Source: an uncultured virus (IMG/VR IMGVR_UViG_3300010344_001075)
Taxonomy: Duplodnaviria; Heunggongvirae; Uroviricota; Caudoviricetes
Strand: one strand, 5' to 3'
DNA length: 64,000 nucleotides
Virus record (IMG/VR): IMGVR_UViG_3300010344_001075
Positions 3,419 through 51,288 of this stretch are shown here, piece by piece. Both the position numbers and the translations under genes were made by a program. Numbering within the stretch: position 1 is the first letter of the stretch; each line of letters starts with the position of its first letter. Under the pieces are notes generated by a model. It was given only the letters and a program-made list of their open reading frames with translations. It was not told the DNA's origin and made no database searches.

Positions 3419-3907
3419 TTACGCAGCTTTGTTTGCTTTGGCTGCCTTTACTTTGAAAATCCCTTTCTCAGTTAACTCCATGTTACCGAGGTAGTCCGGA
3501 TTTTTTTGAATTTTTGTCCTCCAATAAACTTGTGTCTTAAACGAAGCCACATTGATTTTGGTTTTCAACCCCTGTGCAACACAGAACTCGTTTGCGGCTG
3601 CGATGAGGTCTTCCCATTTTCCGCCCTTGGCTATCAGCTCATCAATTTTTACTGACAGTTTGGGTTTGGCCGGTGCTTTCGGTGCCTTGGCCTTCTTTTC
3701 GGCCTTCGGTTTCGATGCTGCCTTGCCCTTTTCCGTACCCTTCTTTTCTTCGGCAGCTTTGTCTTTTGATTTGTTAATCAACTTCTCTGCCAGTTTGCTG
3801 TTCTGGGGTACCACTTTCTTTGCCAGCGGGTTAGCTGCCTTGTTGGCGGTTTCACTTGACTTTTCTGTTGCTTTTGCAACGCCGTTTTCAATAACTTTTG
3901 CTTCCAT
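3419..3907 (-). CDS. Lys/Ala-rich basic protein, possibly DNA-binding or histone-like
   Basis: KAKAPKAPAKPK low-complexity segment plus a small globular C-terminal part; own terminator. Confidence 0.75.
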   Translation of the reverse strand: MEAKVIENGVAKATEKSSETANKAANPLAKKVVPQNSKLAEKLINKSKDKAAEEKKGTEKGKAASKPKAEKKAKAPKAPAKPKLSVKIDELIAKGGKWEDLIAAANEFCVAQGLKTKINVASFKTQVYWRTKIQKNPDYLGNMELTEKGIFKVKAAKANKAA

Positions 3908-4562: not shown

Positions 4563-6110
4563 AGGTGTCTAAGACGTTTAGGAATAGACAAAAGTACTGA
4601 AAAGGTGTCTAAATATCGCTCTTAACCGCGTTTCGCATAATATCGCCGTACATCGGCACACGCACCTACGGCAGTACAATACAGTACAACATACCCCAAA
4701 CCCCTGGAAAAGGCAAGGAACCGCACCTACCAGGCTCTTAGTGGGCTGTACTGTACAGGGCACACAACCTAGCAGCCTAGCAGCCTACTAATCAAACAAT
4801 ATTGAAAGGTGTCTAAATGCTAATAAGGCTATGTACCATGCCGTATAGTCACATCGAGGGTGTCAAGGTAGGTATAGTAGGCAACAGGCTATAAACATAA
4901 GGAAAAGGCAAGGAAAGGTGTCACACAGGCGAAATAGGCAGCCTAACAGGCACACATGAGGTAGGTGGGTGAGGCACTGACATACGACACTGATGGGCAG
5001 TTGATTAGGTGTCTAAAGGCATTGGCAAGGCACACATAGACAGGGGGTTACACCCAATAACAATACTGATAGGCACAAATTAAGGTCTGCCTACCTCACA
5101 CTATCACCCTGTCACCCAACATGTTACCCACTAACCCAACTGCCTGCCTCACCCAATAACAAATGACATAAGCAGTTCATATCTAATTCAATAGGTGTCA
5201 ACTCTGCCTAATGTCTGCCTTATCAACAAACAAAGTACAGTAAGCAGTAACAATGTCAATAATCAAATATGGCTATCTATCCATGTATGTAATGGCATAT
5301 CACATTACTAAGGTATCAACATAGGCTATAGGTATCAATGTCAACGTAGGCAGTATAACAGGCTAATAAGGTAGGGTAGGTGTCAATGGGTGGGTGGGCT
5401 GACAAGGGGTAGGCGGGTGTCAGGGCGGTAAGGCGGGTGTCAAGGTGGGTGTCAAGGGGGTGTCAAGGGGGTGGGGCGATCTGGGCGCGGGCCGCTGAAT
5501 GGTGCCCTGCCTTTTCTAATGACATTAGGTGCCCGATACAATGCCTTGATGCCTAAGGTGTTATGCCCGTTGACATTTGACATGTGGCTGCTGGGCGGTT
5601 GCCCTATTCGCTTAGGTGTCAGGGCTTTAGGCAGGGCGGGGGCTTGACACCCCCCCGGGCGTTTGACGTGTGTAATTCAGGGCTGCGGCGGAAGGACCCC
5701 TTGATAATTGTCCAAATCTATTTCGTAAAATTAGACATTTTCAAGCCCCACCCTCTGCCCTGACTCCCCTTGATAAAGACATCAATTCCCCTTGACATTG
5801 ACATTAGACACACGACATTAGACATTGACACCTCGACACCTAACGCGATTCCCCTTGACACCGTTGCCCTGATGCCCTTTGATAATTGTAGTGACACCTC
5901 TTGACAAGCCCGTCAGCCCCCTCGACAAGTGTTTATATAGGGGAACGTAAAAAGGTGTCACAAGGAGTATGCGAAATTGACAAGCGACATAGGCTTGATG
6001 CCTTCGCAGCATCGCAGAAAAAATTTGTAAAAAATATTTCGGAAAAATTGACAGGGTGTCACACGGCTATTGACACCTCTTGATACGGCTATTGACACCT
6101 CTTGACACGG
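4563..6110. repeat. GGTGTC/GACACC iteron-rich non-coding region (packaging or origin candidate)
   Basis: About 22 GGTGTC hexamers counted by eye on both strands; 22-bp tandem repeat at 6061-6112. Confidence 0.75.
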
Positions 6111-8614: not shown

Positions 8615-8818
8615 ATGGGAACAATTTTAACAGGTCGTGTAAAGTTTTTCAACGAACAAAAAGGTTTTGGCTTCATTGCCGGAGATGATGGAACGGATAT
8701 ATTTGTCCATAAGTCAGGTACACTTGATGTGATCAAGAAGGATGATTTGGTTGAGTATGCAACCGAGAATGGAAAGAAAGGATTGAAAGCGGTAAGAGTT
8801 AAACGAATAAAGGAGTAA
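8615..8818 (+). CDS. csp: cold-shock domain protein
   Basis: GRVKFFNEQKGFGFI (RNP1) and DIFVH (RNP2). Confidence 0.95.
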   Translation: MGTILTGRVKFFNEQKGFGFIAGDDGTDIFVHKSGTLDVIKKDDLVEYATENGKKGLKAVRVKRIKE

Positions 8819-11526: not shown

Positions 11527-12465
11527 ATGAATATACTGAGAAAATATAAGAAATTTACAGAGATCAGTCCAATGTTTTTGGCAGAGAAACAAATACAGAT
11601 TGTTCATAAGTCATATTTGGCATATACTCGTTCTTCAGATGTATTTACGGAATGGTTACAAAGTAAGAATTATATAGATTTACCAATGCGGAAAATTACA
11701 CCACAAATCATATCTGATTTTTTCATTTACTTAGCTAATGTGCGAAAGTATGATAGACCGACTTGTCAGAAGTATTTTATGACTTTGCGTTCTATATTCA
11801 GATATGCATTACGTATTGGTGAAATAAAGTTTATTCCATTTGATAAAGAACATATAGTATTTCCAAAGAAAGGTAAGGATTGTTCTGCGGCTCTTATACC
11901 ATCTCATATTATGCCTATTTTATTAGAGGATATGCGAGAAAATGATCCTCAATTGTTTTTGGCTTGTATGATGGAATTTTATTGTGGAGCTCGTCCTGGT
12001 AGGGAGATTCGTTTAATACAAGTGCGTAATTTTGATTTGATCAATGGTATTTTAACAATAGATGCCGATAAGACCAAGAATGGTAAAGTTGGCAGAATAA
12101 CAATGAGTGATGATTTTATTGAGATGTGTAAAGCGTATGGTATTGCTGATGCTGCTCCAAATTTATATGTATTTGGTAAAAACAAACACATAGATACCAG
12201 ACCATTATCTGAAAATATGCTCAATTATAGGTTTCATACGTATCGTGCAAAATATCAATTATCAAATGATGTGAAGTTATATTCTTTTAAACATATGGGT
12301 GCTAGTTATCTAGTTCATTCCAAAGTATTAGATATACTTGAGTTAAAAGATCATTTGCGGCATTCTGATCTTAGTGCTACACAACATTATGTAAAGAAAG
12401 TACTTGGGGCTGATAATGCTGCAATAAGAACACAATTTCCGAACCCTTTGAAAATAGCGATATAA
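11527..12465 (+). CDS. tyrosine recombinase (Bacteroidota-type integrase/invertase)
   Basis: CGARP (R), KTK (K), YSFKH (variant of HxxR), LRHS (H), TQHY (Y); SAM-like N-domain; no arm-binding domain evident. Confidence 0.9.
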   Translation: MNILRKYKKFTEISPMFLAEKQIQIVHKSYLAYTRSSDVFTEWLQSKNYIDLPMRKITPQIISDFFIYLANVRKYDRPTCQKYFMTLRSIFRYALRIGEIKFIPFDKEHIVFPKKGKDCSAALIPSHIMPILLEDMRENDPQLFLACMMEFYCGARPGREIRLIQVRNFDLINGILTIDADKTKNGKVGRITMSDDFIEMCKAYGIADAAPNLYVFGKNKHIDTRPLSENMLNYRFHTYRAKYQLSNDVKLYSFKHMGASYLVHSKVLDILELKDHLRHSDLSATQHYVKKVLGADNAAIRTQFPNPLKIAI

Positions 12466-13856: not shown

Positions 13857-14953
13857 AAAAGCTGCTTGTCATACTATTCTTGCTTCCTGCCATACTTTCG
13901 GCTCAGGTTGTTTTAACATATGAAGGGCAAAAGTATGTGGATACCATCTGTGAAAATGTAAATGGGCTCTCCATTCCGCGAACAGAGCAAACGACATTCA
14001 CGTTCAAGAATAATTATGTGCAAGCGTGTAATACAGGTGGCTATATTTTACAGGCGGGGCATGAGTCTCCCAACACGATACTTGATCATAAACTTGATGG
14101 GGAATTAATTGTTGGGAATAAATTTGTCTGGGCTGGTGATCAGAACGCCAATACCATTACGCATGGTATATTTACAGGGTATCAAAACAATGTGCGAATA
14201 ATGTACAACTATCTGGATTATGTTCCTATGGGGATTGTCCGTAAATCTAATGGCTGGACGGATAGCACAGGTGTTGTTGCCTACAATATTATTCGGAACC
14301 CTCCTGCGGTAGGAATTGTAGTGAAGGGGATGAATGGTGTTCGTATTTATAATAACACTTTGTTCAGTGAGGATTCTTTGTATGTAGGTCCGGGTATTGG
14401 CACGTGGAGGGGCTTGATAGATGTGTACGAGAACGACAATCCTGTTGGGAGTGCCAAGGGTGCCAAAATCAAGAACAACATCTTTTACACCAAGAGAAAG
14501 CTCACCAACATCAACGTCATGAATGAATCGTGCCTAGAGGGGTTTGAGAGCGATTACAATATCTTTTGGTGTGAGGAGGGCGAGCCGATGTTCATGATTG
14601 GAGGGAATCGGTTAACCTTTACACAATGGAAGGCTCGGGGGTATGATTTACATTCGATGGTAATGAACCCACATTTCAAAGATTTTGTTAACTTTGTTCC
14701 AGAGTTTAGAATTCAATGGGGTACTCCAACTGAATTTGATATGGGCATTGCCATGTCAGATTATTGGGCCGTTGGGTTTGATCCGGTACTTGTAAAACAG
14801 GATGGGTATTGGCAACAAGGTGCCAGAATTTATGAAGGGGATTTGGTTATCTTTTACCGAGGTGGTCGGTTGCTTGAGGGTGATTCTACTAATATTCCTC
14901 TCAAGACTGGCAAGGTGGTAATTAAACAAGGTGAAATTGAAATACAACAGTGA
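13853..14953 (+). CDS. secreted right-handed beta-helix protein (pectate-lyase-like fold)
   Basis: Signal peptide; repeated RIYNNT, KIKNNIF, SDYNIF strands. Confidence 0.75.
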   Translation: MKKLLVILFLLPAILSAQVVLTYEGQKYVDTICENVNGLSIPRTEQTTFTFKNNYVQACNTGGYILQAGHESPNTILDHKLDGELIVGNKFVWAGDQNANTITHGIFTGYQNNVRIMYNYLDYVPMGIVRKSNGWTDSTGVVAYNIIRNPPAVGIVVKGMNGVRIYNNTLFSEDSLYVGPGIGTWRGLIDVYENDNPVGSAKGAKIKNNIFYTKRKLTNINVMNESCLEGFESDYNIFWCEEGEPMFMIGGNRLTFTQWKARGYDLHSMVMNPHFKDFVNFVPEFRIQWGTPTEFDMGIAMSDYWAVGFDPVLVKQDGYWQQGARIYEGDLVIFYRGGRLLEGDSTNIPLKTGKVVIKQGEIEIQQ

Positions 14954-15768
14954 TGTGCAGAAATTGGTTTTCAAAAGAGGAGCCGGTATTTAATCCGGCC
15001 TCGTTTCGGATGATGTCATTCGGAAAGAATACCTATCCTGGTGGTAACAGTTTGCCCGGATGTGTTAATGATACGAATTTTCTGTCGGCTGATATTGGTC
15101 ACCAATTTGGTGGGGATATTCGTAAGTACACTGAATGGAAGGCAACTGCGAAAAGGTATGTTCAAAATACCAATACTGCGATTAGTGTACTTAGTCCGGG
15201 AGCCACGGTTGCCATAATAGCGGATAGTTGTTTTTCTGGGGGGATACTTCGTGCAAACCCACACGTCCCAATGCATAATGGGCATCCTGTTTACAACAGG
15301 TTTTTACCCAATCCTGATATTAAACCGGGCCTTGTTGTTGAAAATCATTTTGCCATTCGTTCGGATCTTCATTGGCTTGTTATAAGTGCTTGTCAAGAAC
15401 ACCAAACGGCTATGGATGCTTACTTTAGTGATATTAAAACCAACATGGGTGCATTAAGTTACAGTCTTCGTAAGTCACTCGTAAAAGGAATGACTTGGCA
15501 GGAATGGGTTAATGCGGCAATGGTTTTACTTGCATACCATGGTTTTGCACAGATTCCAATGTTTTACGGGCCATTGGAGAAGAAACATGAAATTATCGGT
15601 TCAAGCGAAACCCTTATTATTCATAATTCTTCCCATGGTTCTCAGCGGAGGGATTTGGATGGGGATGAAGTTGATAAACTTGATGAAACTATTGAGTTGG
15701 ATACTTTCGTCCTTGATGATACGTTGAATGCAATGTTGCAGAATATACCAAAAAAATTAGCGTCATGA
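14950..15768 (+). CDS. metacaspase-like (C14) peptidase with rearranged motif order
   Basis: LPGCVND, ADSCFSG, SACQ..Q.A.D, GALS, and SSHGSQ..D.DGDE.D..DE located at the C-terminus. Confidence 0.85.
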   Translation: MMCRNWFSKEEPVFNPASFRMMSFGKNTYPGGNSLPGCVNDTNFLSADIGHQFGGDIRKYTEWKATAKRYVQNTNTAISVLSPGATVAIIADSCFSGGILRANPHVPMHNGHPVYNRFLPNPDIKPGLVVENHFAIRSDLHWLVISACQEHQTAMDAYFSDIKTNMGALSYSLRKSLVKGMTWQEWVNAAMVLLAYHGFAQIPMFYGPLEKKHEIIGSSETLIIHNSSHGSQRRDLDGDEVDKLDETIELDTFVLDDTLNAMLQNIPKKLAS

Positions 15769-23165: not shown

Positions 23166-23869
23166 CCTGGCGAGTTCCTAAAATATGGGAAGGTGGTGAT
23201 GTTTGGATCATAGGGGGAGGCCCGTCTGTGCCTCGTCAATTTGATGTTCCTGAGGATATCATTCAAAAGGTAACTCAAGGGACTCTCCCTCCAAACGCCT
23301 ACTCACCCTATATGCATCCAATACATGACAAGCACGTCATTGGTGTAAATATGTCATATAAACTTGGCATGTGGATAGATGTAGTAATGTTTGGGGATAG
23401 TGGGTTTTTCCTTAAAGAAAGAAATGGTTTAGCAACCTTTCCCGGAATCAAGGTTTCATGTAATACAGGCAGCCAAGGAGAGCGGTGGATTAAACATCTT
23501 GGAAGAGATGGCTCTCATTCAAAAGGGATAAGTACCAATCCAATGTTGGTGGGATGGAATGGTAATACAGGTGGGGCGGCAATCAACCTTGCCGTTCATA
23601 TGGGGGCTAAACGGATTTTACTCCTAGGCTTTGATATGAATTTGGATGGTACACGCATGCAACACTGGCATGATTTGTATGGAAAAGGACCTGTATTGGA
23701 TGAGAGGAGAAAGAGAAAACTGCCATTTTCTAGGCATATCACGTCCTTTTCGTTTATTGCGGCAGACGCTAAGAGGCTTGGTGTAGAAATCATCAATCTA
23801 TCCCCAGGCAGTTCAATTAATGATTTTCCTAAGATGTCCGTTAAAGAATTTTTACTTGATACGAAGTGA
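23162..23869 (+). CDS. Maf/DUF115-like putative glycosyltransferase
   Basis: IIGGGPS, IGVN, N(T)G..AINLA..GAKRILLLGFD. Confidence 0.7.
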   Translation: MTWRVPKIWEGGDVWIIGGGPSVPRQFDVPEDIIQKVTQGTLPPNAYSPYMHPIHDKHVIGVNMSYKLGMWIDVVMFGDSGFFLKERNGLATFPGIKVSCNTGSQGERWIKHLGRDGSHSKGISTNPMLVGWNGNTGGAAINLAVHMGAKRILLLGFDMNLDGTRMQHWHDLYGKGPVLDERRKRKLPFSRHITSFSFIAADAKRLGVEIINLSPGSSINDFPKMSVKEFLLDTK

Positions 23870-23870
23870 C

Positions 23871-24656
23871 ATGAATATTGTTAAGTTGGCAGGGGGATTA
23901 GGTAATCAATTATTCCAATACGCATTCGGAAGAGTTGTACAAGAATGCAGTGGAAATAAAACGGCGTATGATAAAACGTGGTATGATACAACTCGTATCC
24001 CTCCTAGGCCTTATGTGTTAGGTCAATTTCAAGTAGAGGTTCCCACATCAGGTTATTTAAAAACAGGTAAGGTTGTGGAGAAGATAAGTGAAGGGATCCC
24101 CTCCTTGTATGTTGATAATAAATATTTCCAGGGATATTGGCAGAACCCTGATTTGTACAGTTTCAAATTGATAGAGGAATTTCGTGAACAGTTTCATGTG
24201 CGGCCACAGTATCAAACCGCTGCGTTTTTAGAATTACGGAAACAAGTACAATCTTGCAATTCAATTGCCCTCCATGTACGTCGTGGGGATTATCTATTGC
24301 ATCCAAATCATTTGGTATTGCCTTTACAGTATTACCAAAATGCTTTATCTTACATGGACGCAATGAAAAAGAATACCGAGGTATTTGTATTCAGTGATGA
24401 TTTGGATTGGTGTCGAGAAAATTTTATGGATTGTCACTTTGTAGAATTGGGGGATGAATGTTTGGAATTTGATTTAATGAGATCTTGTAAACATTTTATT
24501 ATTGCCAATTCTACGTTCTCTTGGTGGGCTGCTTATTTATCATTGAATGCCACTATTATTGGGCCGAAGCGGTGGTGGCGGAGTAATGTAAATGGATTTG
24601 GTGTTTATGAGAAAAGAATGAAGCGTAATGATTGGTTAAACATATCGTTATCGTAA
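23871..24656 (+). CDS. GT11 alpha-1,2-fucosyltransferase-like
   Basis: GGLGNQLFQYA, GYWQ, HVRRGDY, FSDD..WC, IANSTFSWWAA. Confidence 0.92.
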   Translation: MNIVKLAGGLGNQLFQYAFGRVVQECSGNKTAYDKTWYDTTRIPPRPYVLGQFQVEVPTSGYLKTGKVVEKISEGIPSLYVDNKYFQGYWQNPDLYSFKLIEEFREQFHVRPQYQTAAFLELRKQVQSCNSIALHVRRGDYLLHPNHLVLPLQYYQNALSYMDAMKKNTEVFVFSDDLDWCRENFMDCHFVELGDECLEFDLMRSCKHFIIANSTFSWWAAYLSLNATIIGPKRWWRSNVNGFGVYEKRMKRNDWLNISLS

Positions 24657-25393
24657 TGGATATACTAATAACAACGGCTCCGAAGGATTTTAACAAACTC
24701 AAGTTTAACTATGAGTCCATTGTGCGGAACATAGAAGGAATTGATGAGGTTATCTATGTTTCTCCCGTGGTTATTCCATCTGAATATTTACCGAATAAAG
24801 ATGTTCTTTGTTTCACTGATGCTGGGGTACTTGATTTTGATTTCTTCCTTATTAAGGATGCCAAACGACGTGGTTGGTATCGGCAACAGTTCATTAAGTT
24901 GTTTCAAGAACTTACTTTTAGTAATTACCTTGTGGTTGATTCAGACGTATATATTTGCAAGCCGTTAAAGATAAGTGATGCCCAGCCAATATTTTACCTT
25001 GGGCAAGATCAACTACATCAACCTTACTTTAATTTGATGAAAGATCTTGTCAACCTTGACCGGGTTTATCCTCATTCTTTCATCAGTGAAATAATGTATT
25101 TTAAGAAAGACATTATTGATGAAATTGTTTCTTACGTAGGAGTTGATGATTATGAGTTCTTTAACAAGTGTGTCGCGTACATAAATGAGGCAAATGACCC
25201 TTCTGGTTTTTCCGAATACGAATTGTACGGAAATTTTACAACGAAATACTTTCCTGGGTTATACCAGTATGAACATATAAAGGTCCTTCCAAAAGCATTG
25301 AAGAGAGAATGGACTACCAAAGAGATTCAGCAGTTTATTGAGCAGAATAAAGACAAGGGGTTTGATTTATTAACAATGCATAGTTGGTTATGA
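24656..25393 (+). CDS. putative nucleotide-sugar transferase (DUF6492-like)
   Basis: GWYRQQFIKL, DSD (DxD), FSEYELYG. Confidence 0.7.
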   Translation: MDILITTAPKDFNKLKFNYESIVRNIEGIDEVIYVSPVVIPSEYLPNKDVLCFTDAGVLDFDFFLIKDAKRRGWYRQQFIKLFQELTFSNYLVVDSDVYICKPLKISDAQPIFYLGQDQLHQPYFNLMKDLVNLDRVYPHSFISEIMYFKKDIIDEIVSYVGVDDYEFFNKCVAYINEANDPSGFSEYELYGNFTTKYFPGLYQYEHIKVLPKALKREWTTKEIQQFIEQNKDKGFDLLTMHSWL

Positions 25394-26271
25394 GAGTAGT
25401 GATGTTTCATAGTGGGAAAGAGCTCCCAAGTTTCTTGGAAGCCAATTTTAAGCAGTTCCGGTATTTCAATCCGTCGGTCCCTGTTTATTTTCTTACGGAT
25501 TACCATCATTTACAAAATCCTGTCTTTGAGAAGTATTCAATAATTGCTGTTAACAAAGATGATTATTATTCTGAAAAGGTTACGCACTTTGAAATATTGT
25601 TTGGCAGAACTTCAAATGATTTTTGGACCTTGGCCGCAACGAGAATGCTATACATTGAAAATTTTATGCGGTTGCGGAGTATGACAAACGTTTACCATTT
25701 TGAAAATGATGTATTGATTTATTACAATTTACAGAAACATCATACATACCTTCGGCAATATTGGGGAATGTGGATTACCTTTGGTGGACCAGATAAGTGT
25801 ATGACTGGTTTTATGTTCATCAAGAATTATAAGGCTCTTCAACATATGACTAATTATTGGATTAATTTGCTTAGTGAATATGGTGTGGGTGGTGTAAAGA
25901 ACACATTCAAAGTTGATATGGTTAATGAGATGACGTTAATGCGGATATACGCAAGTGATGCGGAGTCAAAGTTACGCCCATTGCCTACGATGCCTGTTCC
26001 TCCAATGAACCATGGGTTTGAAGATTTTGGTTCTCTGTTTGATCCAGCTTCCTGGGGACAGTATGTAGGAGGTACCCGTAACGAAGGGCCTGGGGCAATG
26101 CCGCAGGACCATTACATTGGGGTATGGTTAAAGTCTTTACCAGAAGTCCGCCTTGTTTGGATATATGAAGATCATTTGAAAATACCAACTCTTATTTATA
26201 ATAACGAAGCATTTCGAATAAATAATTTGCATATTCACAGTAAGAACCTACATTTATACATAAGCAAATGA
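25390..26271 (+). CDS. putative glycosyltransferase-like protein
   Basis: FW..A..R, HFENDV, NEM, FDPASWGQY.GG, NLHIHSK. Confidence 0.6.
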   Translation: MRVVMFHSGKELPSFLEANFKQFRYFNPSVPVYFLTDYHHLQNPVFEKYSIIAVNKDDYYSEKVTHFEILFGRTSNDFWTLAATRMLYIENFMRLRSMTNVYHFENDVLIYYNLQKHHTYLRQYWGMWITFGGPDKCMTGFMFIKNYKALQHMTNYWINLLSEYGVGGVKNTFKVDMVNEMTLMRIYASDAESKLRPLPTMPVPPMNHGFEDFGSLFDPASWGQYVGGTRNEGPGAMPQDHYIGVWLKSLPEVRLVWIYEDHLKIPTLIYNNEAFRINNLHIHSKNLHLYISK

Positions 26272-27035
26272 TAGACTGGATACAAGGAGAACGGTTTATG
26301 GCATTGGCAAACAATGAAGACATATTCTACTGTCATACGCATGACGTGAATTATTTCTTTAAACACTTGCCAACTGAGAAACCTTTTATCCTTATCAGTC
26401 ATAATAGTGACGGGTGTATAATGAGGCATCCAGATCGGGCTGACCATGCCGATGTTGGTCTTATGCCCCCGAATCTTATTCATTGGTTTGGGCAGAATGT
26501 CAATACGGTAAATGTCAAAGTCAGTTCTTTACCATTGGGAATGGAAAATAACCGGTGGCTGAAGAAAGAACGCAAGCTCAAGAAAATGGAAGAGAAAGTA
26601 AATGAGCCACGTAAGATACGGAATTTACTTTATGTCAATCATAATGTGGCAACCAATCCAGAAGAGAGGCAACGTCCATATTTTCTCTTTGCAAAGCAGG
26701 ATTGGGTGACAATGAAAAGAGGAAAGAACGGGGAAAGTTTTTATGCGTACTTGGATGACTTGTACAATCATCAATTTATTCTTTCTCCGCAAGGGCATGG
26801 GATAGATACCGTTCGTACCTGGGAGGCGTTGTACATGGGCACAATCCCAATCGAGAAAAGAAACCTTAACAACCGTTTCTATGAGGATCTTCCAATCTGT
26901 TTTGTAAGTGAGTGGGAACAGATAACGGAAGAGTTCTTACAGGAAGAATATGTGAGGATAATGACAACCAAGTGGAACCTTGAGAAACTTAACTTTGAGT
27001 ATTGGGCAAACAAAATTAGGAACTATGATAAATGA
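26268..27035 (+). CDS. exostosin/GT47-like protein
   Basis: LISHNSD, F.LSP.G.G.DT.R.WEALY.G.IPI. Confidence 0.7.
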   Translation: MIDWIQGERFMALANNEDIFYCHTHDVNYFFKHLPTEKPFILISHNSDGCIMRHPDRADHADVGLMPPNLIHWFGQNVNTVNVKVSSLPLGMENNRWLKKERKLKKMEEKVNEPRKIRNLLYVNHNVATNPEERQRPYFLFAKQDWVTMKRGKNGESFYAYLDDLYNHQFILSPQGHGIDTVRTWEALYMGTIPIEKRNLNNRFYEDLPICFVSEWEQITEEFLQEEYVRIMTTKWNLEKLNFEYWANKIRNYDK

Positions 27036-27621
27036 TCGTTACATGGAATTGGTAAAACCTCAGTACAAGGTTTCTTATTTGGCATATTTGAAAGATGCTA
27101 AGAAGATGGAGGCCTTCAGCACACATCAACCACCACTTATACACATGCTTAACACTATTATTGAGGGGGAGGTGTTAGAGTTTGGAATGGGTTGGCACAG
27201 TACTCCAATAATGCACCTACTTTGTGGGATACAGGGTCGGAACCTGTTAAGTGTTGACACTGACAAGAATTGGTTTGACAAATTTAAGGACTACCGGGCA
27301 CCTTGGCATCAATTGCAACTGTCGGAACAAGAACCAATATTTAAAGGACAACACAGTATGTTTGATAAGCATTATGCCATTGCGTTTGTGGATGCAGCCC
27401 CGGCACAGATTCGGCAACCTGTTATTGAAAGAATCAAAGATGTGGCAGATTATGTTATTGTGCATGATTCAGAATGTACTTTCCAAGGAAGGAAGAATGC
27501 GTACGCATACGATTTTTCAATGTATAAGCATGTGTTGCACTTCCGTCCAATGAATCCTGCCACGTCGGTGTTGTCAAACTTGGATGAGATTCCAACTGAA
27601 GTAACAAGAATATTTGAATAA
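27025..27621 (+). CDS. class I SAM-dependent methyltransferase
   Basis: VLEFGMG..ST, SVD...W, FVD, VIVHD. Confidence 0.75.
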   Translation: MINDRYMELVKPQYKVSYLAYLKDAKKMEAFSTHQPPLIHMLNTIIEGEVLEFGMGWHSTPIMHLLCGIQGRNLLSVDTDKNWFDKFKDYRAPWHQLQLSEQEPIFKGQHSMFDKHYAIAFVDAAPAQIRQPVIERIKDVADYVIVHDSECTFQGRKNAYAYDFSMYKHVLHFRPMNPATSVLSNLDEIPTEVTRIFE

Positions 27622-28898
27622 TGGAAGAACGTAAAACCATAGTGCTTGTCTTACGAAGCGGAGGCGACTTTGCCATACGTGATGTTGAGTTAATCGCTCG
27701 GCATATTCAAGGTAAGTGGCAATCTCCAATTAAGCCTCGTATTATATGTCTGTGGGATAAGGCATCACAACATTATGATCTTGGTAATTTTGAATTGTTA
27801 CCGTTAAGCAATACATATCCTGGAACTTGGAGTCGCATCCAATTATACAGCCCAGAGATGGATCAGTATCGTCCGTTTTTGTATGTCGATCTCGACACAG
27901 CAGTTGTTAATTCTCTTGAGCAAATATTCGCTTCTATTATTGATCCATCTCTTTTTATTACTCTTGAGGATTTTTGGCAGAAGGGTTCTTTAGCAACCGG
28001 ACTTGTATGGTTCCCCAAAAATTGTGAAAAGACAAAAAAGGTTTGGGAGTCTTGGAAGATGCCGGTGGGTCGACGCATGGACAATTACATTCGCTCAGTT
28101 ATTTCGGCGGACACTTATTGGCAGAAATTAACCAATTCTATTTATGACTTCAAACCAAGGCGCGGAGGGTTACTCCAAAAAGTTCCGGAGGGGGCTTCGT
28201 TAATATGTTTTCATGGTAAACCTCGCATTTTTGAGGCAGTTAATATAGGATGGGTTAACACCTACGTAAATTCAAGGGTTTCCTGCCCGCTCCGGGGTGA
28301 TCGTAGTGTTACTGTTATAATACCGTACAACAAGGATCGGGGCTGGTTACAGGCAGCAAAAGACAGCGTACCTGAAGGCGTCCAGTTGATATTAAGTAAG
28401 GGGGACGGAAATTGGCCTGAGAATTTTAATGCGGTACTTGATAAGGCTACCGGGCGTTATATTCGTTGGTTACATGAGGACGATATGCTTACTCCAAATT
28501 GTATAGAGGATTCAATAAAGACATTTGAGGAACAAGATGTTGATTTCATTCATGGCCCCGCTGTTGAAATCTTTATGAACGCTGGACGAGCCACACAACG
28601 ATATACACCACCTATTAAATATCCTACCGTAGATGATTTATTGAGGAAGAATGTTTTGCACAGTGCTACAATGATGTATAAACGTGAGGTATTTGAAAAG
28701 GTGGGCAAAATGAATGAGACATTAAATACAGCAGAGGAATTTGAGTTTAATCTGCGGTGTTTAAAAGCAGGGTTGAAAATAGGGTACTGTGAAACACCTT
28801 TGGCTTTTTACCGCAGACACGCTCAGCAAAAGGTACGGGTCGTTCCAAAAGAACAGAAAGATAAAGAACGTGAACAAGTGAAACAGTTATACAGATGA
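27621..28898 (+). CDS. two-domain glycosyltransferase (GT8-like + GT2)
   Basis: N-domain Y.DLD and FHGKP; C-domain VTVIIPY, HEDD, GY...PL..YRRH..Q. Confidence 0.8.
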   Translation: MEERKTIVLVLRSGGDFAIRDVELIARHIQGKWQSPIKPRIICLWDKASQHYDLGNFELLPLSNTYPGTWSRIQLYSPEMDQYRPFLYVDLDTAVVNSLEQIFASIIDPSLFITLEDFWQKGSLATGLVWFPKNCEKTKKVWESWKMPVGRRMDNYIRSVISADTYWQKLTNSIYDFKPRRGGLLQKVPEGASLICFHGKPRIFEAVNIGWVNTYVNSRVSCPLRGDRSVTVIIPYNKDRGWLQAAKDSVPEGVQLILSKGDGNWPENFNAVLDKATGRYIRWLHEDDMLTPNCIEDSIKTFEEQDVDFIHGPAVEIFMNAGRATQRYTPPIKYPTVDDLLRKNVLHSATMMYKREVFEKVGKMNETLNTAEEFEFNLRCLKAGLKIGYCETPLAFYRRHAQQKVRVVPKEQKDKEREQVKQLYR

Positions 28899-43813: not shown

Positions 43814-44107
43814 TTAATCGTTGCATCTCTCGCCTCCTTCCGTCTTTCCATACAAAACCGACCATTCGCCCGTACTCGATGATATCCATGTCCTCACAGG
43901 CGGAGGACAATCACATCTTAAATCAAACGGACTATGTACCGCCCCACATCTCGGACATATCCATCCGTACATTGCAACAGTTTCCGCTATCCGCTTCTCC
44001 ACCTCCTGATTGATGAGAGGTTCAATCATATCAATAATTGCATTCATGGACTTATACCGTGAACGTACTTTCATTTCGTCGAATAAATTGCGTAGCTTCT
44101 CTTTCAT
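43814..44107 (-). CDS. hypothetical protein with zinc finger
   Basis: GWICPRCG.V.SP....C.C. Confidence 0.7.
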   Translation of the reverse strand: MKEKLRNLFDEMKVRSRYKSMNAIIDMIEPLINQEVEKRIAETVAMYGWICPRCGAVHSPFDLRCDCPPPVRTWISSSTGEWSVLYGKTEGGERCND

Positions 44108-44219
44108 CTCTCAATTCCATTTAAATGTATCTCCAAATGCTTTCATAAGCCACCATAACAGGGCAACCAGCCCCACCACCACAACACTCAAAATAATTAT
44201 CGCTGCTTTCATCTCTCGG

Positions 44220-44417
44220 TTAGTTTTCAATTACATCTACCATGCATGGATCAAAACTATCGTAGTTATCTCCGCAGGTCTTACAGATACAGTCCTTGCC
44301 CCAATCATCATTATAAACAATGCGGGTGTTTACCGCATGACATATCCACATATCCTCACCGGCAACCTCATAGTTCATGGAGGCTTTGCCGCACTTGCAT
44401 TTTTCTGTGTGTTTCAT
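44220..44417 (-). CDS. small Cys-rich hypothetical protein
   Basis: CKCG and CICKTC motifs. Confidence 0.6.
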   Translation of the reverse strand: MKHTEKCKCGKASMNYEVAGEDMWICHAVNTRIVYNDDWGKDCICKTCGDNYDSFDPCMVDVIEN

Positions 44418-44553
44418 TTCGTATCGGTGTTTTTATTTTCTATCCCTGGTTTTATATGTTAACCTTTAGTGTACATATAACATAGTTAGCAAACATTAAA
44501 ACGATTTGCTAACAGGGGCTATAAATAATAAAACCCCTGCCAGCGCACCGCTA

Positions 44554-44772
44554 CTAATCAACAGGCTCAAAATTATCTTCAAAATACTGTTTTGCCACAA
44601 GCCACTGGTCGTTATGGTTTTTTGGATTTCGTGCAATCATATCACCTACTTTTGGACTTCCTGCATCTTTGTCGGCTTGTGATACGGATACTGCATCAGA
44701 TAATTTTTCACCTTCTTCAAAAGGTCGTAGTTCTGCAATCTGCTTTCTACGGTACTCTTTAAATTCACTCAT
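44554..44772 (-). CDS. hypothetical protein nested in an attC-like loop
   Basis: 72 aa; GDMIARNPKNH.DQWLVA..YF. Confidence 0.75.
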   Translation of the reverse strand: MSEFKEYRRKQIAELRPFEEGEKLSDAVSVSQADKDAGSPKVGDMIARNPKNHNDQWLVAKQYFEDNFEPVD

Positions 44773-44873
44773 TTTTATTATGTATTAAGTTACGTGCAGT
44801 AATTATTCCCCCACCGCACAAAAAGGGGTTTTACATATTCATAGCCCCAAAACGTTGTAGGTAATTAAAAATA

Positions 44874-45068
44874 CTACTTCTGTGGTTTTTTCGAAGCGTA
44901 TTTCCTTTCCCAACTTTGCCGTTCAAAATCTAAAAATTCAATAAGGTATTCCAAAACCTTCACCTTATCCCATTCTTTTAATTCTTCTTCGGTGTAATCA
45001 CTTTCGATTTCAAATGAACACTCTTCTACCGTGTCCATCATAAACTGTTGCATTTTCTCTAATTCCAT
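44874..45068 (-). CDS. acidic hypothetical protein (cassette gene)
   Basis: 64-aa ORF between GTTGTAGGTA and TACCTACAAC. Confidence 0.7.
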   Translation of the reverse strand: MELEKMQQFMMDTVEECSFEIESDYTEEELKEWDKVKVLEYLIEFLDFERQSWERKYASKKPQK

Positions 45069-45216
45069 AATTTTTAGATTTTTATTAGTGTTTCAATTCC
45101 GTATTTTTAACATACCTACAACAAGCGGTATAGTGCAGTTTGCCATTAGGTTAGTGGTAAGGTGAAAAAGTCTGCAATGCAAACCGACACCATACCGCCA
45201 ACCGTTATATGCAAGG

Positions 45217-46038
45217 CTAAGACCGTGCATCGTTCAACCTTTGTAGTGTTATTTCAATCGCTCGTGGGTTAATATCACATCCGATAAAATTTCGGTTTAA
45301 TTCTTTACAAACTACTGCGGTTGTGCCACTACCTAAATAAAAATCTGCAACCAAATCGCCTTCGTTACTACTTGCTTTTATTATTCGTTCAATCAATGCT
45401 TTTGGTTTTTGGGTATCATAACCTAATCTTTCTTTTGCTGTTGGCTGTATATGTTGTATTTCCCAAACATCGTGTAATGGCACACCCTTGTTTTCAGTTT
45501 CACGCTTTTTATAACTACCATCTTCATTTTTTAATCTTACCAATTTGCCATCAATCACACCCCTAACTGTATCTTCAATTTCATTTGGCTTTGCGTAATC
45601 CTGATATTGAATGTTAAATTTTGATTTATCTTTTGAATAAAACAATATTACATCGTGCATTTTTTGAAAACCAAATGAAATATTTGACCATCTTTTATAC
45701 CACCAACTTATTTCGTTTCTAAATTTATCATACCCAAAAATATCGTCCATAATACACCGCATCCAATGGTTTATTTTAGTATCCATTTGCAAATAAATAC
45801 TCCCTGTTGGTTTCAATATTCGGTGCATTTCTTTTATTCGTGGTATGTAGTGCGCTTCAATTTCACTACGTATCGGTTTTAAATCTTGATAGTCTGCAAA
45901 TTTCCTTCCAGTACCATAAAGAATATCACAATAAATTAAGTCAATCGTGTTGTCTTTAATTTCCGCCATCAATTCTAAATTGTCGCAAATTCTAAGGTCT
46001 AAAAAATTTCCTCCCCCTATTTTTTCTTTTACTTTCAT
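45217..46038 (-). CDS. DNA N6-adenine/N4-cytosine methyltransferase, beta class (cassette gene)
   Basis: IDLIY.DILY (motif IV variant), TQKP..L..RII, DFYLGSGTT (motif I). Confidence 0.9.
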   Translation of the reverse strand: MKVKEKIGGGNFLDLRICDNLELMAEIKDNTIDLIYCDILYGTGRKFADYQDLKPIRSEIEAHYIPRIKEMHRILKPTGSIYLQMDTKINHWMRCIMDDIFGYDKFRNEISWWYKRWSNISFGFQKMHDVILFYSKDKSKFNIQYQDYAKPNEIEDTVRGVIDGKLVRLKNEDGSYKKRETENKGVPLHDVWEIQHIQPTAKERLGYDTQKPKALIERIIKASSNEGDLVADFYLGSGTTAVVCKELNRNFIGCDINPRAIEITLQRLNDARS

Positions 46039-50128: not shown

Positions 50129-50341
50129 TCATCCTACAGGCCTCCCCCCTACGAATTTTGAAAACTCCCGAGCTTCCTCTTTCGTAATGAAGCCAGCCTT
50201 GTAAAGTTGGGATGCATGAAACGGACGGTCATCCGGGCTACAATAACGCAGTAGAATAATTGGATCCATTTGTTCAATTACGGAACCTAGATTTTTGTGC
50301 ACGGCATGCACGGCTCTTTTTAATGCTTTCAACTGACTCAT
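50129..50341 (-). CDS. hypothetical protein
   Basis: 70-aa ORF with ATGA overlaps. Confidence 0.6.
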
Positions 50342-51288
50342 AATTCTTTGTCTTTGGTTAGTAATGCTTTGAAATATGCTATTGTTAATTTCAATCCCGT
50401 CTCAAGTGTAACCTGTGGTTCCCAATCCAACACGGCCTTTGCCAATTCTATGTTTGGGCATCTTTGTTTTGGATCATCAGTAGGTAAATCTTTGTAAACA
50501 ATGACAGCCTTTACCCCTGTCAATCGGGTAACGCTTTCTGCAAGTTCTTTCATTGTAAACTCACCGGGGTTCCCGAGGTTGAGTGGGCCAGTAAAGAAAT
50601 CAGGTTGTTGCATAAAACGAATAAAAGCCTCAATCAAGTCATCAACAAATTGGAAGCTTCGTGTTTGACTACCATCCCCGTAGATTGTGAGTGGAAGCCC
50701 TTTCAAGGCTTGTACAATGAAATTACTTATAACCCTACCATCATCTTTTCTCATCCTAGGGCCGTAGGTATTGAAAATTCTTGCTATCTTTACCGGGGTT
50801 CCGTATTGCCGATGATAGTCCATACAAAGTGTTTCAGCACACCGCTTTCCTTCATCATAACAAGAACGGAGCCCTACCGGGTTTACATTGCCCCAATACC
50901 ACTCTGGCTGCGGATGCTCTTCTGGATCCCCATACACTTCGCTCGTAGAGGCCTGCAGGATTGGGATGTTAAGCCTACGGGCAAGGTCGAGTGCATTTAT
51001 CGTCCCCATTACATTGGTACAGATCGTTTGTACAGGATCTTTTTGATAATGCACGGGGGAGGCCGGACAGGCCAAGTTGTAAATTTGATCCACTTCTACG
51101 GAGTACGGTTGTGTAACATCCCAACGTATAAACTCAAAGTTGGTGTCGTTTAACAAATGGTTGATGTTACGCTTATCTCCCGAGAACAGGTTGTCCATAC
51201 AAATGACTTGGTTTCCCAAGCTTAGAAGTGTCGAGCAGAGGTGGCTTCCTATGAAACCGGCCCCTCCTGTTACAAGTATTCTTTTCAT
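50338..51288 (-). CDS. uxs: UDP-glucuronate decarboxylase (UDP-xylose synthase family SDR)
   Basis: [56 protein letters not shown]. Confidence 0.92.

Follow-up and report, generated by a model that had tools for sequence, protein, structure and literature searches.

Exchangeable single-gene modules closed by cassette-specific stems in phages of Bacteroidota

The 64,000-nt stretch of DNA analyzed here (the window) comes from an uncultured virus of the class Caudoviricetes (IMG/VR record IMGVR_UViG_3300010344_001075). On its minus strand, it carries a 72-amino-acid (aa) open reading frame (ORF) that lies between two imperfect inverted repeats. The initial annotation had described this arrangement as a whole gene nested in the loop of a hairpin resembling attC, the recombination site of integron cassettes. 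Our results indicated that the two repeats, or arms, are the two halves of an approximately 24-bp, cassette-specific stem that closes an exchangeable one-gene module, and that the coding strand, in single-stranded form, is the one that carries the module structure. The idea of a whole gene between the two arms of one hairpin proved to be literally true, and it was the rule across a large family rather than a one-off. The elements of the unit in the window, listed in the order in which they are read on the gene strand, were as follows.

44825..44848, minus strand: 24-nt L arm, the 5' member of the arm pair when read on the gene strand, GGGGCTATGAATATGTAAAACCCC; seen in the sequence and in folds, with the same arm in other contigs.
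44794..44819, minus strand: leader hairpin H1, GTGCGGTGG ... TTACTGCAC, part of a conserved 5' block that separates the L arm from the start codon.
44554..44772, minus strand: cargo ORF, 72 aa; member of a widespread phage family, modelled as a small beta-rich fold.
44538..44551, minus strand: 3' trailer, a conserved block that reads GCGGTGCGCTGGCA in gene-strand orientation and can alternatively pair locally with the 5' half of H2.
44515..44537, minus strand: 23-nt R arm, the 3' member of the arm pair when read on the gene strand, GGGGTTTTATTATTTATAGCCCC; seen in the sequence and in folds.
44485..44514, minus strand: hairpin H2, TGTTAGCAAA-TCGTTTTAATG-TTTGCTAAC, with an invariant loop and inner stem, a covarying outer stem and a TAAC end.

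The L and R arms formed a 24-bp duplex with one bulged U and two G.U pairs on the minus strand (A.C on the opposite strand). When one gap was allowed, 21 positions matched, both mismatches were G.U on the minus strand, and the flanking A/T positions (44514/44538 and 44824) paired as well; an ungapped repeat finder reported the arm pair as 23 nt, 78% complementary and 288 nt apart. The arm RNA duplex had an energy of -37.0 kcal/mol, compared to a mean of -9.8 and a minimum of -21.7 kcal/mol for shuffled arms, and 0 of 1000 shuffles were as good, which bore out the imperfect inverted repeats seen by the initial annotation. Among 1582 sampled minus-strand positions of the window, the arm pair was the second-best long-range pairing, and the minimum free energy and centroid folds of the full region both joined the arms to each other (z of -4.85 for RNA and -4.96 for DNA). 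With up to 3 mismatches allowed, the first arm occurred once in the window (0 expected); H2 also occurred once.

The hairpins next to the arms helped to define the unit. H1 had an energy of -11.9 kcal/mol (z of -2.5), and, as judged by eye, its stem was retained with changes in other cassettes. H1 and the local fold of the R arm with H2, which excludes pairing of the two arms, have a regulatory look. The approximately 11 nt that had initially been taken for a cassette body ahead of the gene turned out to be the 11-nt loop of H2, a separate conserved hairpin that abuts the arm. Likewise, the cargo had been placed in the variable terminal structure of an attC site, but the counterpart of the inner attC hairpin is H2, which lies outside the arms. 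Rfam gave no known RNA family at the arms, at H2 or at the short cargos described below, and neither YAACGKTT nor GTGCGGTGG was enriched in the window as a punctuation motif.

The same frame was found around other genes. The arm pattern occurred in 24 viral stretches, 3 of which were likely chance matches in GC-rich coding DNA, and an inverted second arm lay 250 to 412 nt away in 16 of the 24. The interior of each arm pair held one small same-strand ORF that differed between contigs; in total, the arm pair framed at least 11 unrelated small ORFs (at least 11 blastp clusters for the frames of the G-arm subfamily). Two arm subfamilies were distinguished, and both arms shifted in concert between them. 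Only the frame was conserved across contigs, with 93 to 100% identity: the 5' block (~75 to 120 nt) comprised the arm, H1 and the opening codons of the ORF, and the 68-nt 3' block comprised the trailer, the arm and H2. The flanks were unrelated between contigs, even where the cargo was identical. A second viral scan, which used the 3' block, yielded zero additional contigs. Unrelated G-arm cargos (the window ORF and those of loci L074-L083) opened with the common codons MSEFKE or MSDFKE; thus, the conserved 5' block extends a few codons into the ORF, and this reach into the ORF may mark a recombination junction.

These data also bear on the idea that each arm is a terminator-like hairpin in its own right or that the inverted repeat arose by chance. 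Both arms start with GGGG and end with CCCC, TTTTT follows the 5' arm, and the 3' arm with its flanks formed a stable local alternative hairpin (-22.3 kcal/mol, z of -6.4) that used the trailer GCTGGCA and the first half of H2. The 5' arm by itself, however, folded no better than shuffles (-6.1 kcal/mol, z of -0.5), and the loops of the two arms were mutually reverse-complementary. The concerted shift between subfamilies, the recurrence of the pair in 16 viral loci, and the presence of the design in dozens of metagenome loci also spoke against this idea, and we consider it scarcely credible. The initial annotation had named arms that fold only on themselves as the outcome that would count against it; instead, the arms paired mutually in the full folds, and the 5' arm alone made no hairpin.

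In the case of the 72-aa protein, homologues were found at 65 viral loci, and 3361 homologous proteins were found at an E value of ≤0.001. Judging by these sequence matches, the ORF is a genuine, widely conserved gene. The protein and its small neighbors had no Pfam, PHROGs or NCBIfam family match. An AlphaFold model (predicted local distance difference test score of 83.7) had no PDB match at an E value of ≤0.001; the best rows were SH3-like small barrels with E values of >1. Nearly all of the homologues were located in tight operons without arms. Specifically, an exact k-mer test, used because RNAduplex was too noisy on long GC-rich flanks, detected no flank-to-flank complement of at least 9 nt in 57 of the 62 homologue loci; 5 of 599 mismatched control pairs reached 9 nt. 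A few homologues (L051, L054/L055, and L015) lay inside other arms. Thus, a check proposed at the outset, whether homologues lack the arms, came out mostly that way, yet the arms recur with other cargos. The arms are part of the cassette frame and not of the 72-aa gene.

We used H2, which followed the pattern TGTTAnnnnA-TCGTTTTAATG-TnnnnTAAC, for wider scans. The metagenome scan yielded at least 122 stretches, 80 of which were fetched. Of the 20 stretches from the genome scan, 14 came from records whose titles indicated Bacteroidota, the isolate Lutibacter holmesii among them; the hosts are Bacteroidota. When 98 distinct H2 sequences were compared, pairing at the four free positions of the stem reached 98.5%, and the number of double-change cells was 135, compared to 45 ± 4 in shuffles (0 of 500). 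There were merely 1 to 2 copies per 2.6- to 3.6-Mb genome, which ruled out a host-wide repeat. In 110 loci, the H2-loop motif recurred 33 further times on the strand of the unit, compared to 13 times on the other strand.

The scans revealed a common module grammar. The R box, which covers the ~25 nt before H2, had a near-perfect inverted L-box partner 43 to 499 nt upstream. This partner beat all 20 shuffled controls in 47 of the 72 usable loci, compared to ~3.4 expected; the partner count relies on the 20-shuffle comparison, as alignment score thresholds with shuffled AT-rich boxes were loose. On the gene strand, the order of the unit was TAAC, G plus a 5- to 6-nt linker, L stem, cargo, R stem, 0 to 3 nt, and H2, and TAAC followed by G was invariant at every module boundary. 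In a rare unsplit form (L182 and L122), the R box paired with sequence directly after H2.

The stems themselves showed both a shared and a private part. The H2-proximal half carried a shared core, TATGAATAGT paired with ATTATTTATA, and the cargo-proximal half was cassette specific. The L/R pairs were counted with a purpose-written script, and a MAFFT alignment of whole cassettes misplaced the window L stem. In 54 distinct cassettes, stem positions -13 to +10 were nearly all Watson-Crick, mostly with 3 to 4 pair types per position. A central G.T followed by T-A was present in 45 of the 54, and a bulged T lay beside it in 13 of those 45. Coding-strand wobbles comprised 43 G.T and 5 T.G pairs versus 0 A.C or C.A, in addition to 24 other mismatches, under scoring that was blind to mismatch type. 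Homologous cargos with differing stems showed paired changes, as in L164 versus L140.

A different explanation is that the arms are sites for proteins that bind duplex DNA, either terminal inverted repeats (TIRs) of an element akin to miniature inverted-repeat transposable elements (MITEs) or inverted binding sites of a recombinase or transposase, as in pdif modules. The arms are inverted and ~24 bp long and share a core across cassettes, the units occupy unrelated contexts, and the window encodes a tyrosine recombinase. However, a duplex-binding protein does not require inner arm halves that are cassette specific yet complementary with compensatory changes, and one-stranded wobbles (48 versus 0) would be meaningless in a duplex unless L and R carry different signals. 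In addition, no target-site duplication was found at the arms (flanks GTTTT and TGTTA). We therefore regard this explanation as highly unlikely. A MITE or TIR transposon in the strict sense was rejected on the missing duplication and on arms that differ between cassettes.

Cassettes with a gap of at least 100 nt contained one ORF each, of 47 to 141 aa, on the H2 strand. The cargo ATG was usually 1 to 30 nt past the L stem, and the stop codon was mostly within ~10 nt of the R-stem start. In the G-arm subfamily, where the H1 leader is present, the ATG lay ~48 to 75 nt past the L stem and the stop codon lay 16 to 27 nt ahead of the R stem; a few cassettes were outliers. The 65 cargo proteins fell into 44 blastp clusters, one of which was a wrong-strand artefact. 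Thirteen short cargos (43 to 80 nt) were non-coding. Several of the short cassettes (which include L109, L116, L117, L124, L134, L135, and L148) had one or two T-arm-like GGTTCGAnnCC motifs. The idea of tRNA cargo was dropped: among the 13 short-cargo loci, ARAGORN called just a tRNA-Leu in L109, Rfam gave none, and only the T-arm-like motifs remain. Units were also present in cultured systems. The prophage of Lutibacter holmesii CCUG 62221 carried a unit with a 292-aa cargo between its terminase and portal genes, and Cellulophaga phage phi39:1, which infects Cellulophaga baltica NN015839, carried one unit around gp03 (record positions ~728-935), immediately ahead of the terminase genes. In the phi39:1 record (L249), two tandem same-loop hairpins were located at 907-970, immediately upstream of the small terminase gene.

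The nearest upstream ORF was on the same strand as the module in 11 of 11 loci, and the nearest downstream ORF was co-stranded in 10 of 12. No promoter was identified in the window by eye, the only way in which we looked, as no promoter model was run. TTTG/TAnnTTTG is the Bacteroidota-type promoter consensus; by eye, it was present only in a few G-arm cassettes (L067, L088, and L089) and not in the window.

The window contained three consecutive stems of the same build, each better than all of its shuffles (0 of 1000), in a segment that is missing from variant contigs.

45200-45210, minus strand: TATAACGGTTG, seen in the sequence, preceding stem 1 on the gene strand.
45125..45198, minus strand: stem 1 (-33.2 kcal/mol), two 12-bp helices on either side of a bulge; its loop spans 28 nt and contains no ORF.
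45105-45122 and 44854-44871, minus strand: arms of stem 2, 11 bp + bulge + 11 bp, -25.0 kcal/mol, enclosing a 64-aa ORF at 44874..45068.
44515-44848, minus strand: stem 3, 13 bp + bulge + 11 bp, -37.0 kcal/mol, with the 72-aa ORF inside, followed by the sole H2 of the window.
44489..45210, no strand assigned: 722-nt segment with the three stems and H2, missing from variant contigs in two runs; the joint of 44488 to 45211 was seen in X15 and X16.

Contigs of two RNA-library runs, from different studies, bridged 44488 and 45211 with CCA. Read on the gene strand, this junction was ...TGGTAAC|TATG..., so that TAAC bounded the indel on both sides. One DNA run joined 44552 to 44778, so that the cargo was replaced and both frame blocks were kept, and contigs ended or branched at H2. 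Adjacent small genes showed single-gene indels in metagenome contigs, with joints of 44112 to 44437 and 44217 to 44427. A short repeat around start codons, CTTTCATCTCTC on the plus strand, was present at the breakpoints of these adjacent genes (44101-44112 and 44206-44217). The junction contigs are diverged strains and not evidence of splicing. The RNA-library contigs did not cover 44608-45009; those runs contain the module-less variant, and therefore the missing cover is not evidence of silence.

The reading that we prefer, with slightly less than even confidence, is a closing stem that acts at the level of RNA, combined with module swapping at H2. Since the module is co-oriented with its operon (11 of 11 upstream ORFs), both arms would be transcribed within the operon and would have to pair. 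They would form a long double-stranded RNA stem that closes the cistron and contains the conserved central G.U, with or without the bulged U. This stem could be an RNase III-type substrate or a translational or insulating lock, because the start codon is only 1 to 50 nt into the stem interior and the stop codon is at the foot of the stem, and it would serve processing, stabilization or translational locking. The near-identical H2 and frame blocks would provide homology for module exchange between phages, as in the promoter early stem-loop (PeSL) cassettes considered below. Our data demonstrate a family with paired and covarying stems, a strand asymmetry, diverse cargo and, at the DNA level, mobility and indels; we infer that the stem works as RNA and may be cleaved, and that an enzyme may swap the modules. 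The one-stranded wobbles, the stems that directly adjoin start and stop codons or non-coding cargo, the conserved leader and trailer with their alternative folds, and the exchange of ORFs within one cassette frame all fit a transcript-level stem.

Several points weigh against such an RNA stem. Neither transcripts nor RNA ends or cleavage sites were observed, and the RNA-library contigs carry the module-less variant. In many modules, the start codon is just 1 to 7 nt from the end of a 24-bp stem, which should prevent translation initiation unless the stem is cleaved or melted. No phage RNase III was found in the window or in the other scans, and no promoter was identified. G.T is the most stable mismatch in single-stranded DNA too, so the strand asymmetry is no proof of RNA. 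The 722-nt indel lies at a TAAC site without H2, and thus plain homologous exchange at H2 does not explain it. Finally, the fixed linkers (0 to 3 nt before H2 and 5 to 6 nt after it) suit one compact R-H2-L structure.

A compact structure of this kind is the core of an integron-like split site, an explanation that we hold as a tentative possibility. The R arm, H2, and the L arm would be contiguous if the unit were circularized. In this explanation, the R arm, H2, linker, and L arm of the circle form one hairpin (an attC analogue) that recombines at TAAC|G, folded coding-strand DNA is the substrate, and an inserted circle leaves its cargo between its own L and R arms. Topologically, the unit would correspond to an integron cassette whose R boxes are very long. 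The cassette-specific L/R complementarity would follow automatically. The invariant TAAC followed by G at boundaries, the fixed linker lengths, the tightly packed ORFs with no identified promoter, and the presence of the same cassette in unrelated flanks would also be accounted for, and the bulged T and fixed G.T are reminiscent of extrahelical bases. So would the TAAC-bounded 722-nt indel at a site without H2 and the few unsplit loci (L182 and L122).

Polaribacter phage P12002L, a Flavobacteriia phage whose methylase is homologous to that of the window, provided further points in favor of the split site. Intergenic hairpins of P12002L had the same TCGTTTTAATG loop on other stems and were flanked by GCTAAC ... 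GTTAGGC. In its record (L251), same-loop hairpins were located at 2836-2960 and 3711-3846 on the minus strand, and one methylase gene was enclosed by GTTAGGCAC/GTGCCTAAC. Therefore, the same kinds of stem can hold an 11-nt loop or a whole gene. In a published account, a P12002L region was called a cluster of attC sites lacking an integrase (CALIN), and a predicted attC in the methylase region is reported to have been recombined by IntI1 (PMC9892861), which is only indirect evidence for recombination of the units described here.

Other results argued against an integron-like site. No IntI was found: the tyrosine recombinase of the window, 33 kb away, scored 17.1 bits on the TIGR02249 model (cut-off of 265). 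A PF00589 domain was present in 2 of 7 other records (2 of the 5 IMG/VR records, 17 to 28 kb from the cassettes) and was not found in the complete Cellulophaga phage phi39:1 or in G001, the record nearest to the window, which stops short of the region of the 72-aa unit; tyrosine recombinases were neither adjacent nor universal. The arms had no R-box consensus, the order of GTTAGC...GCTAAC in H2 was opposite to that in attC, and the asymmetry was on the coding strand, unlike that of attC. Hybrid sites folded no better than the shuffled control, as the R arm and the sequence after H2 formed at least 6 outer pairs in 24 of 105 loci versus 23 of 105. Moreover, one frame with at least 11 unrelated ORFs needs cargo replacement inside the arms, which the mechanism does not provide.

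A variant of this explanation does without the integron. Specifically, Bacteroidota phages may have an integron-independent cassette system in which a non-IntI enzyme acts at TAAC|G on a coding-strand hairpin, with the arms as its outer part and H2 as its inner part, and this hairpin is split on insertion. Each cargo gene would therefore lie inside its own hairpin. We consider this system possible but doubtful. The RNA reading that we prefer and the single-stranded-DNA readings are not mutually exclusive.

The window represents all or much of a phage genome. The plus strand from 6.2 to 43.4 kb contained genes for terminase, portal, tail tube, a 2384-aa tape measure, and further structural proteins. 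From 43.4 kb on, the minus strand contained PolA, clamp loader, RecA-like, RuvC-like, and SbcCD-like genes, together with many small ORFs. The arm-framed 72-aa unit was located among the small minus-strand genes, directly downstream of an N6/N4 DNA methylase gene (45217..46038), the nearest DNA matches of which were in phages of Flavobacterium, Cellulophaga, Polaribacter, and Tenacibaculum. The phage was present in activated-sludge, wastewater, and digester metagenomes, and all or part of a 3-kb stretch was found in 20 runs from 18 studies. The recombinase mentioned above lies in the structural part of the window.

11527..12465, plus strand: tyrosine recombinase with a PF00589 and a SAM-like domain and weak XerA/XerC-like scores, amid the structural gene block.

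Some other features of the window are worth recording. The phage encodes a cold-shock domain protein (8615-8818, plus strand; CSD E value of 1.8e-14) that could matter for the melting of long stems; proteins of the cold-shock domain family are RNA chaperones. A caspase-like Peptidase_C14 domain, several glycosyltransferases, and an enzyme of the GDP-mannose-dehydratase/epimerase type were encoded at 14950-15768 (plus strand), 23820-28898 (plus strand), and 50338-51288 (minus strand). A non-coding cluster of GGTGTCAAGG / TTGACACC repeats in both orientations was located at 5378-6106, ahead of the terminase genes. This cluster had an iteron- or operator-like look and the top long-range pairing energy in the window.

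If this reading holds, many Bacteroidota phages, from marine, freshwater, sludge, and gut-related habitats, carry small accessory genes that move about as standardized one-gene modules and can be recognized by their frame. The frame would then be a sequence rule for locating such genes and unannotated non-coding cargos, as well as a handle on how phage "morons" (accessory genes between conserved genes) insert without disturbing operons. Cellulophaga phage phi39:1 and the Lutibacter holmesii prophage are cultured systems that carry the units. Either outcome would be new, whether RNA punctuation, with a dedicated stem around each cistron, or a second cassette mechanism that resembles integrons but operates without IntI. 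As a kind, these are hairpin-bounded gene cassettes, and they would be categorically new if the mechanism were shown to be IntI-free or RNA punctuation.

The modules share a number of features with known systems, the first of which is the integron. The attC core sites are RYYYAAC (R'') and G|TTRRRY (R'), and an attC site is a contiguous imperfect palindrome, R''-L''...L'-R', of roughly 57 to 141 bp directly 3' of the ORF. Here, the arms were 288 nt apart around the ORF, and the contiguous piece was the R arm plus H2. Like integron cassettes, the modules are single-gene units that are apparently promoterless and found in unrelated contexts, and a folded imperfect palindrome follows the ORF. The 5' end of the unit is complementary to its own 3' site, as in integron cassettes, but here the complementarity is cassette specific, shows compensatory changes, and extends to 20 to 25 bp. 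The boundary at the inner edge of the 3' arm (TAAC|G here versus G|TT in attC) is also shared, and the bulged base and the strand asymmetry are reminiscent of the extrahelical bases and strand selectivity of attC. Unlike attC, the complementary part is ~24 nt instead of 6 to 7 nt, and therefore the ORF appears to be inside the hairpin. Other differences are an inner hairpin (H2) with an invariant loop, usually one to few units per phage, an asymmetry that favors the coding strand rather than the bottom strand, arms of the form GGGGCTAT.../...ATAGCCCC, and the reverse order of the H2 ends. Thus, the cassette logic of the attC-like description held, but membership did not: a canonical attC was ruled out by the lack of RYYYAAC/GTTRRRY boxes, by the coding-strand asymmetry, and by the lack of IntI.

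Long stems are also known from RNA processing. The 16S/23S ribosomal RNA (rRNA) processing stems and the RNase III sites of T7 early mRNA involve rRNA or local intercistronic hairpins. Like the rRNA processing stems, the module flanks pair over at least 20 bp, have the product in the "loop", show compensatory change, and place G.U on the transcribed strand. Unlike the rRNA and T7 RNase III stems, they each enclose an individual small protein gene, and cleavage is only proposed here. We know of no phage with individual small protein genes that are each enclosed by a stem. With the pdif modules of Acinetobacter plasmids, mycobacteriophage mobile elements (MPMEs), and repetitive extragenic palindromic doublets forming hairpins (REPINs), the modules share a small unit size, inverted sites or repeats, and many contexts. 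The pdif sites have one consensus and do not need mutual complementarity, MPMEs have one conserved ORF, and REPINs have no gene; the H2 hairpin is present here and in none of those.

Our literature searches turned up no account of H2, the L/R stems or the module grammar; matches to CGTTTTAATG concerned unrelated topics. The nearest published item was the CALIN call in P12002L (PMC9892861). The PeSLs of T4-type phages are described as direct repeats of a sigma-70 promoter and a terminator (PMC2839356). Here, by contrast, each gene also has a complementary arm pair of its own, H2 lacks a downstream T run, and no promoter was identified. The likeness to PeSLs (PMC2839356) lies in small accessory genes of a hyperplastic phage region that are separated by a repeated stem-loop and shuffled as modules. 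In that system, indels and replacements between related phages map to the stem-loop, and here H2 is directly repeated and indels are bounded there.

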